Source: Escherichia coli
GTDB taxonomy: Bacteria > Pseudomonadota > Gammaproteobacteria > Enterobacterales > Enterobacteriaceae
Strand: one strand, 5' to 3'
Assembly (NCBI RefSeq): GCF_003334765.1
Contig: NZ_QOWT01000004.1
DNA length: 64,000 nucleotides
Shown: positions 20,409 to 20,721 of the stretch, one piece after another
Numbering within the stretch: the first letter of the stretch is position 1
How the letters are laid out: every line of letters starts with the position of its first letter
Program-made: the position numbers and the translations under genes
Notes under the pieces: generated by a model
The model's input: only the letters and a program-made list of their open reading frames with translations
Database searches by the model: none
Told to the model about the DNA's origin: nothing

Positions 20409-20721
20409 TAACAATCCAGGGTAATGGGTGAGGCGAGAGTAAGACGGTAACAGACATATCTTCTTGTGTCTTTCTTTTAATACCAAAACATAACCGTTTC
20501 TTTACATTGATAAAAAATGGAAAAAGTTGAACACTAGTTGGCGAAAAATCTTGTATAGATTGTCAGTTAAATGATGCAATATGTTTTATCATAACACATT
20601 GTTTTATATGCATTAGCACTAATTGCAAAAAATTAATTTATCATTCTGTACACATATTTCGTACAATTTTGCTATTGTTACTTCACTTAACATTGATTAA
20701 CATTTTTAACAGAGGCGTAGC

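Follow-up and report, generated by a model that had tools for sequence, protein, structure and literature searches.

Introduction

CarH, a light-dependent repressor of the MerR type, senses light itself through B12 and binds tandem repeats as a tetramer.

Within the MlrA branch of the MerR family, an operator has been described upstream of csgD, where the MlrA box reads AAAGTTGTACA(12N)TGCACAATTTT and is idealised as AAAATTGTACA(12N)TGTACAATTTT (Ogasawara et al., 2010, cited through PMC3509220 and PMC9662190); its position is given as -146 to -133 relative to the translational start of csgD. BluR (YcgE) represses ycgZ. Tschowri, Lindenberg and Hengge (2012, Mol Microbiol 85:893; PMC3509220) described a DNase I footprint of BluR on a motif of the form GTACA...GTACA / TGTAC...GTACA, which overlaps the -35 and spacer regions of the sigma-S ycgZ promoter and is accompanied by two hypersensitive sites (PMC3509220). 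The promoter itself was found to depend on sigma-S, with a 5' end that lies 36 nt before the ATG and a spacer of 18 bp (PMC3509220). Five sets of point mutations, together covering both half-sites, reduced or abolished the shift in electrophoretic mobility assays (EMSA), and operator point mutants of ycgZ::lacZ, a fusion present in single copy, were derepressed to the same extent as the fusion in a bluR::cat background (PMC3509220). BluR is described there as having no role other than repression and as being released by BluF (PMC3509220). In an independent study at 37 C, ycgZ was derepressed about 100-fold when bluR was mutated (PMC5491885).

The BluR operator of ycgZ is therefore already known and, as it was mapped and mutated in 2012, its confirmation adds no new biology. 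What the present analysis adds is the co-occurrence of the operator with bluR-bluF in the Enterobacterales, a probable ancestral palindrome of perfect 6-7-6 symmetry, and a set of related boxes lying over the promoter of bluR.

The bluR-bluF/ycgZ locus

The DNA under study is a 64-kb stretch of Escherichia coli sequence, referred to below as the window. From its open reading frames and the RefSeq annotation of identical DNA, the locus considered here was recognised as the E. coli bluR-bluF / ycgZ-ymgA-ariR-ymgC region, in which bluR and bluF occupy the minus strand and ycgZ, ymgA, ariR and ymgC the plus strand (Table 1). A 361-bp query spanning the intergenic region recovered it from 4917 of 5426 complete E. 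coli genomes. In the E. coli isolate AB66 (locus L003; 1099-2309, 3593-4821), the annotation gives bluF as a pseudogene with a frameshift, and ariR and ymgC are separated by an IS2 element.

The protein encoded by bluR has the Pfam domains MerR_1, MlrA_helical and MlrA_C; its N-terminal residues 4-71 match both MerR_1 (E = 2e-18) and MerR (E = 2e-12), and thus form a winged helix-turn-helix of the MerR type. The solved DNA-binding domains nearest to that of BluR belong to CarH and LitR, which are light-dependent MerR-type repressors (E = 6e-14 to 7e-14).

Table 1. Positions of genes, promoter elements and regulatory sites around the bluF-ycgZ intergenic region, in window coordinates
Feature	Coordinates	Strand	Basis or remark
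bluR (ycgE); MerR/MlrA-subfamily repressor binding the operator	18261..18992	-	ORF, RefSeq, Pfam MerR_1 + MlrA_helical + MlrA_C
Perfect palindrome ATACTTTGTACAAT-N10-ATTGTACAAAGTAT, 14-nt arms, carrying the TGTACAATTTT box	19042..19079	.	Lies over the bluR core promoter
bluF (ycgF); BLUF-EAL anti-repressor removing BluR from the operator	19197..20408	-	ORF, RefSeq, PMC3509220
MarA/SoxS-type marbox GCACTAATTGCAAAA, -70 to -56; activator input adjoining the operator	20616..20630	+	Identical to the site in PMC5684230
BluR operator core TGTACAcatatttcGTACA, TGTACA-catattt-cGTACA	20647..20665	.	Sequence; motif footprinted and mutated in PMC3509220
Left half-site TGTACA, -39 to -34; overlaps the -35 hexamer	20647..20652	.	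T-GTACA in 47/47 aligned loci with 13-bp spacing; PMC3509220
Putative -35 hexamer TACACA, 18-bp spacer	20649..20654	+	Placed from the published start site, spacer length and sequence
Right half-site cGTACA, -26 to -21; within the promoter spacer	20660..20665	.	C departs from the cross-genus consensus T
A/T-rich tail ATTTT beside the right half-site; the arm then reads cGTACAATTTT and resembles an MlrA-box arm	20666..20670	+	Sequence
Putative -10 hexamer TATTGT with a preceding C at 20672 (sigma-S type)	20673..20678	+	Placed from the start site at 20686 and sequence
Start of ycgZ transcription, 36 nt before the ATG	20686	+	Primer extension in PMC3509220, converted to window coordinates
ycgZ, with which the repressed ycgZ-ymgA-ariR-ymgC operon begins	20722..20958	+	ORF and RefSeq annotation of the identical region

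The operator in the ycgZ promoter

The sequence TGTACAcatatttcGTACAATTTT (equivalent to tgtacacatatttcgtacaatttt) is present at positions 20647-20670 of the window, where the surrounding DNA reads ...ttcTGTACAcatatttcGTACAATTTTgctattgtt... and contains a first TGTACA at 20647-20652 and a second GTACA at 20661-20665. The ycgZ ATG at 20722 places the element between 75 and 52 nt upstream of the start codon, in agreement with an earlier note on this DNA that had put it about 55-75 bp upstream; the motif proposed in that note at 20648-20666 is real, with its left end one base off, as the true start is 20647, and its right end one base past the second GTACA.

Pattern searches of the spacer and of the window were used to find operator matches, and they point to a single candidate. 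The core can be read in two ways, either as an inverted repeat, TGTAC-N9-GTACA, or as a direct repeat, GTACA-N8-GTACA, and 20647-20665 is the sole site in the 64-kb window at which a GTACA...GTACA direct repeat overlaps a TGTAC...GTACA inverted repeat. The pattern TGTACA-N8-GTACA has a single match in the window, where dinucleotide-preserving shuffles lead one to expect 0.01 (a match turned up in 1 of 100 of them). When up to two mismatches to TGTACA-N7-TGTACA are allowed, only two sites emerge from the window, namely the ycgZ operator (with one mismatch) and a site at the bluR promoter. A search for inverted repeats in the bluF-ycgZ spacer reported none, the arms being only 5-6 nt long.

At 19 bp, with five of six symmetric positions in each arm, the E. 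coli site falls within the range of dyads of ~18-22 bp. Its flanks do not distinguish the direct from the inverted reading, since nnTTT follows both boxes (as in a direct repeat) and AAAnn precedes the left box (as in an inverted one); a search for a solved structure of BluR or MlrA that might settle the matter found none.

Because the published motif description and its stated position fit one site only in the intergenic region, 20647-20665 can be equated with the BluR operator reported in PMC3509220. The element thus almost certainly serves as operator for BluR, a repressor of the MerR/MlrA family, in the sigma-S-dependent ycgZ-ymgA-ariR-ymgC promoter, and nothing contradicts this reading. 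This is also what the earlier note had proposed, and the proposal is borne out by the footprint and mutants of PMC3509220 together with the uniqueness of the motif between the two genes; a BluR footprint elsewhere would have spoken against it, and the published DNase I protection falls on the motif itself (PMC3509220).

Relative to the start site at 20686, the operator core extends from -39 to -21, with half-sites at -39 to -34 and at -25 to -21 (GTACA), which puts the two boxes on the -35 hexamer and in the spacer, respectively, of the promoter that starts 36 nt upstream of the ATG. A different assignment of the core promoter would change this picture: TTATCA-18-TACAAT (20638-20667) is a better match to the sigma-70 consensus (9 of 12 positions in a consensus scan), and were it the promoter really used, the right box would be part of a -10 element and not of a spacer. 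Such a promoter should start near 20674, whereas primer extension puts the 5' end at 20686 and none was reported near 20674; moreover, the sigma-70 scan found two sites in the region against 2.1 from shuffles. We consider use of this promoter very improbable and reject TTATCA-18-TACAAT as the ycgZ promoter, the mapped 5' end being too far downstream and the scan no richer than shuffled sequence.

With the promoter starting at 20686, a mechanism can be proposed in which binding, the position of the footprint, the loss of binding and full derepression in mutants, and the antagonism by BluF are taken from the literature. The two (T)GTACA boxes, which start 13 bp from each other and together extend from -39 to -21, would be read by a dimer of BluR, and the bound protein bends the operator DNA. 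With the left box on the -35 element and the right box in the 18-bp spacer, bound BluR would keep RNA polymerase off the promoter, probably by steric occlusion. At low temperature and under blue light, the BLUF-EAL protein BluF binds BluR directly and takes it off the DNA, whereupon the operon is derepressed. The operator is in this way the switch that carries blue light and low temperature to the Ymg/Rcs pathway and thence to biofilm matrix, curli and OmpF in E. coli.

Conservation of the operator

Thirteen diverse YcgZ proteins were aligned, the alignment was used to fetch 80 species-level ycgZ loci, and linkage to bluR and bluF was established by tblastn. A pair of boxes of the form GTACA-N8/9-GTACA lies no more than 120 nt from the ycgZ start in 51 of the 67 loci from other species in which bluR-bluF is linked; the box starts are 13 bp apart in 46 of these two-box loci and 14 bp apart in the remaining five. 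The two-box site is found in none of the ten ycgZ loci that lack bluR-bluF (Pantoea, Erwinia and Izhakiella), a difference for which Fisher's test gives p = 5e-6, a statistic that ignores shared ancestry. Operator and regulator thus co-occur across genomes, an expectation that was added here and was not part of the original definition of the element.

The cross-genus consensus over 47 aligned loci with 13-bp spacing, aaattTGTACA-nTTTtta-TGTACA-(g/a)nTTT, is a 6-7-6 dyad of perfect symmetry. In 39 of these 47 loci the right GTACA is preceded by T and in two by C, which makes the cGTACA of E. coli a minority variant. From the alignment, a perfect TGTACA-N7-TGTACA palindrome was probably the ancestral ycgZ operator, and the E. 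coli site would be its one-base variant; on a more novel reading, this E. coli site may be a weakened form of the family-wide operator.

The geometry is not universal, given that 16 of the 67 linked loci are without a strict two-box site; two of these 16 carry GTACg in the left box. Seven Buttiauxella loci have their second GTACA downstream of a -10-like element, ~33-34 bp from the first. Four loci of the Klebsiella oxytoca group, all linked to bluRF, have a single box.

Within E. coli, three divergent alleles differ by 6-24 substitutions in the 313-bp intergenic region and by none in the 19-bp core, which by itself is weak evidence of constraint because even the most divergent allele would be expected to carry only ~1.5 core substitutions. 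Two positions beside the core, 20646 and 20667, vary among these alleles. At 20667, T is replaced by G, so that the ATTTT tail, to which the earlier note had given weight, is present in the window and yet is not a fixed feature of the species, the divergent alleles having AAGTTT.

The right-hand box is kept also where bluRF is absent, and promoter function or another regulator may account for part of the conservation. Carried to its extreme, this consideration would make both boxes nothing but the -35 and spacer sequence of the ycgZ promoter, kept for RNA polymerase and bound by no regulator. The overlap of the left box with the putative -35 element would fit such an explanation, as would the single TGTACA that the Pantoea, Erwinia and Izhakiella loci without linked bluR-bluF retain at a fixed distance from the -10-like TGTATAAC. 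It does not account for the restriction of the second, upstream box to loci with linked bluR-bluF (51/67 vs 0/10), nor for the behaviour of box mutations, which derepress the promoter instead of inactivating it and abolish BluR binding (PMC3509220). The mutant phenotypes reported in that paper rule the explanation out for E. coli, and we regard it as practically out of the question.

In the ten Pantoea, Erwinia and Izhakiella loci, the retained TGTACA stands 19-20 bp upstream of TGTA(T/C)AAC, a spacing like that of the MlrA box. Control by MlrA could have come first, with a left box specific to BluR added later.

The position of the BluR operator relative to the core promoter may also differ among genera. 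In most other genera a -10-like TGTATAAC lies ~13 nt past the right box, and this would place the right box, not the left, on the -35 element there. The promoters of E. coli and of the Citrobacter freundii group align without gaps with those of other genera. The -10 element of E. coli (TATTGT) is ~8 bp upstream of the position that holds TGTATAAC or TATACC elsewhere. On these alignments, the E. coli operator would lie within the interval from -35 to -10, and that of other genera on the -35 element or upstream of it.

Boxes over the bluR promoter

The bluR transcription start site has been mapped 54 nt upstream of the start codon (PMC3509220), which corresponds to position 19046 of the window. 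The perfect palindrome listed in Table 1 accordingly spans about -33 to +5 of this start. On the bluR strand it contains TGTACA-attttag-CGTATA, which is one base off the ycgZ operator and overlaps the likely -10 element TATATT. The 10-mer GTACAATTTT has only two copies in the window against 0.21 expected, one in the ycgZ operator (plus strand) and the other at 19063-19072 (minus strand) in the palindrome upstream of bluR; the claim of the earlier note that the two places have a half-site in common is thus correct. A third TGTACA lies at 19026-19031, which brings the number to three in 204 bp (Poisson ~1e-5 at the window's own rate).

The stretch 19055-19073 is the second-best TGTACA-N7-TGTACA of the window, a rank to be read against the ~2.4 sites with no more than two mismatches that are expected per 64 kb (an estimate assuming equal base frequencies); it is notable only by its position and its conservation. 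As regards the latter, a (G/A)TACA box pair is found 50-69 nt upstream of the bluR start codon in 62 of 67 species. The spacing of these boxes is 18-21 bp, as in the MlrA box, in 43 species, and 13-14 bp, as at ycgZ, in 19.

The conserved box pair on the bluR promoter suggests autoregulation by BluR or an input from MlrA, and this is the only possibly new point of regulation at the locus. Judged from the boxes themselves, the bluR core promoter has about an even chance of being a further binding site of BluR or of its paralogue MlrA, which would close an autoregulatory or cross-regulatory loop; if BluR is the protein that binds these boxes, the light switch would be self-regulating. The text of PMC3509220 makes no mention of the palindrome. 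Searches for BluR autoregulation, for BluR ChIP-exo, and for MlrA or SELEX at ycgE gave nothing relevant in the literature covered, the scope of which did not extend to Tschowri et al. 2009 (Genes Dev 23:522).

Other regulators at the ycgZ promoter

Two further regulators have been connected with the bluF-ycgZ spacer. RcdA, a TetR-type activator of bluF whose box is TTGTnnACA, footprints the ycgF-ycgZ spacer, and the operator DNA might also, or instead, be one of its sites. Genomic SELEX with RcdA recovered the spacer six times, tandem RcdA boxes have been described within it, and DNase I treatment revealed a promoter-proximal protection of 36 nt together with a distal protection beginning at TTGTATAGA (window positions 20551-20559), all according to the published RcdA work. 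One-mismatch matches to TTGTnnACA occur at 20644-20652 and 20646-20654, over the left BluR half-site, the second of these being CTGTACACA, which becomes the perfect TTGTACACA in the divergent E. coli alleles L001 and L002; the coordinates of the 36-nt footprint are given only in a figure. On the other hand, further one-mismatch RcdA boxes occur elsewhere in the spacer, and binding of RcdA would add to that of BluR, not replace it. A place for RcdA on the operator DNA is conceivable and rather unlikely; given a 36-nt RcdA footprint in the spacer, a putative overlap would mean that RcdA and BluR may compete.

MarA is the second such input. Its ChIP-seq site gcactaattgcaaaa, listed for ycgF<>ycgZ (PMC5684230), corresponds to window positions 20616-20630, that is, to the marbox adjoining the BluR operator (Table 1). 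By eye and without counting, a AGCACnnnnTGCnAAA-like sequence was seen upstream of ycgZ in many genera, including the Pantoea and Erwinia loci without bluR-bluF.

Comparison with related operators

Of the known operators, the MlrA box of csgD shares with the ycgZ site the TGTACA core and an A/T-rich outer flank, and both are read by paralogous helix-turn-helix domains of the MerR/MlrA type. The right arm, cGTACAATTTT, shares 10 of its 11 positions with the MlrA arm TGTACAATTTT. The two sites differ in spacing, the hexamers of the MlrA box being separated by 12 nt (starts 18 bp apart) and those of the ycgZ site by 7 nt (13 bp). No TGTACA-N10-16-TGTACA was found in the bluF-ycgZ spacer, and the only two in the window are both upstream of bluR. 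They differ also in their place and action, in that the MlrA box is a far-upstream activator site, whereas the ycgZ site, at -39 to -21, overlaps the core promoter and serves repression only. The description of the ycgZ element in the earlier note as an operator of the MlrA type consequently holds for the half-site and fails for the spacing and the position.

These similarities raise the question of whether MlrA, too, binds the ycgZ operator in vivo, which would create cross-talk between curli control and the Ymg-Rcs pathway. BluR and MlrA are 49% identical, with only four differing residues in the helix-turn-helix, and BluR binds the csgD MlrA site weakly (PMC3509220). Together with the 10/11 match of the right arm, these properties would be compatible with a shared site. 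The hexamer gap, however, is 12 nt in the MlrA box and 7 nt at ycgZ, a bluR knockout alone derepresses fully (PMC3509220), and the literature text searched contained no report of MlrA binding to ycgZ. Binding of MlrA here is decidedly unlikely.

The classical MerR operators, such as those of MerR, CueR, ZntR and SoxR, resemble the ycgZ site in several respects: a winged helix-turn-helix of the MerR type recognises a dyad of ~19 bp in a promoter whose spacer exceeds the optimal length, and the DNA is bent. Classical operators, however, are centred in a spacer of 19-20 bp, whereas the ycgZ spacer measures 18 bp and the centre of the site, at -30, is displaced onto the -35 element. Classical MerR regulators are switched from repressor to activator by untwisting the DNA; BluR, according to PMC3509220, never activates. 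The signal also arrives differently, as BluR is removed by a protein partner and classical MerR regulators are converted by a ligand.

CarH and LitR resemble BluR in that they, too, are MerR proteins with a purely repressing role; they cover the -35 region, and light makes them leave the DNA. Unlike CarH, BluR has C-terminal domains of the MlrA type and depends on a separate photoreceptor, BluF.
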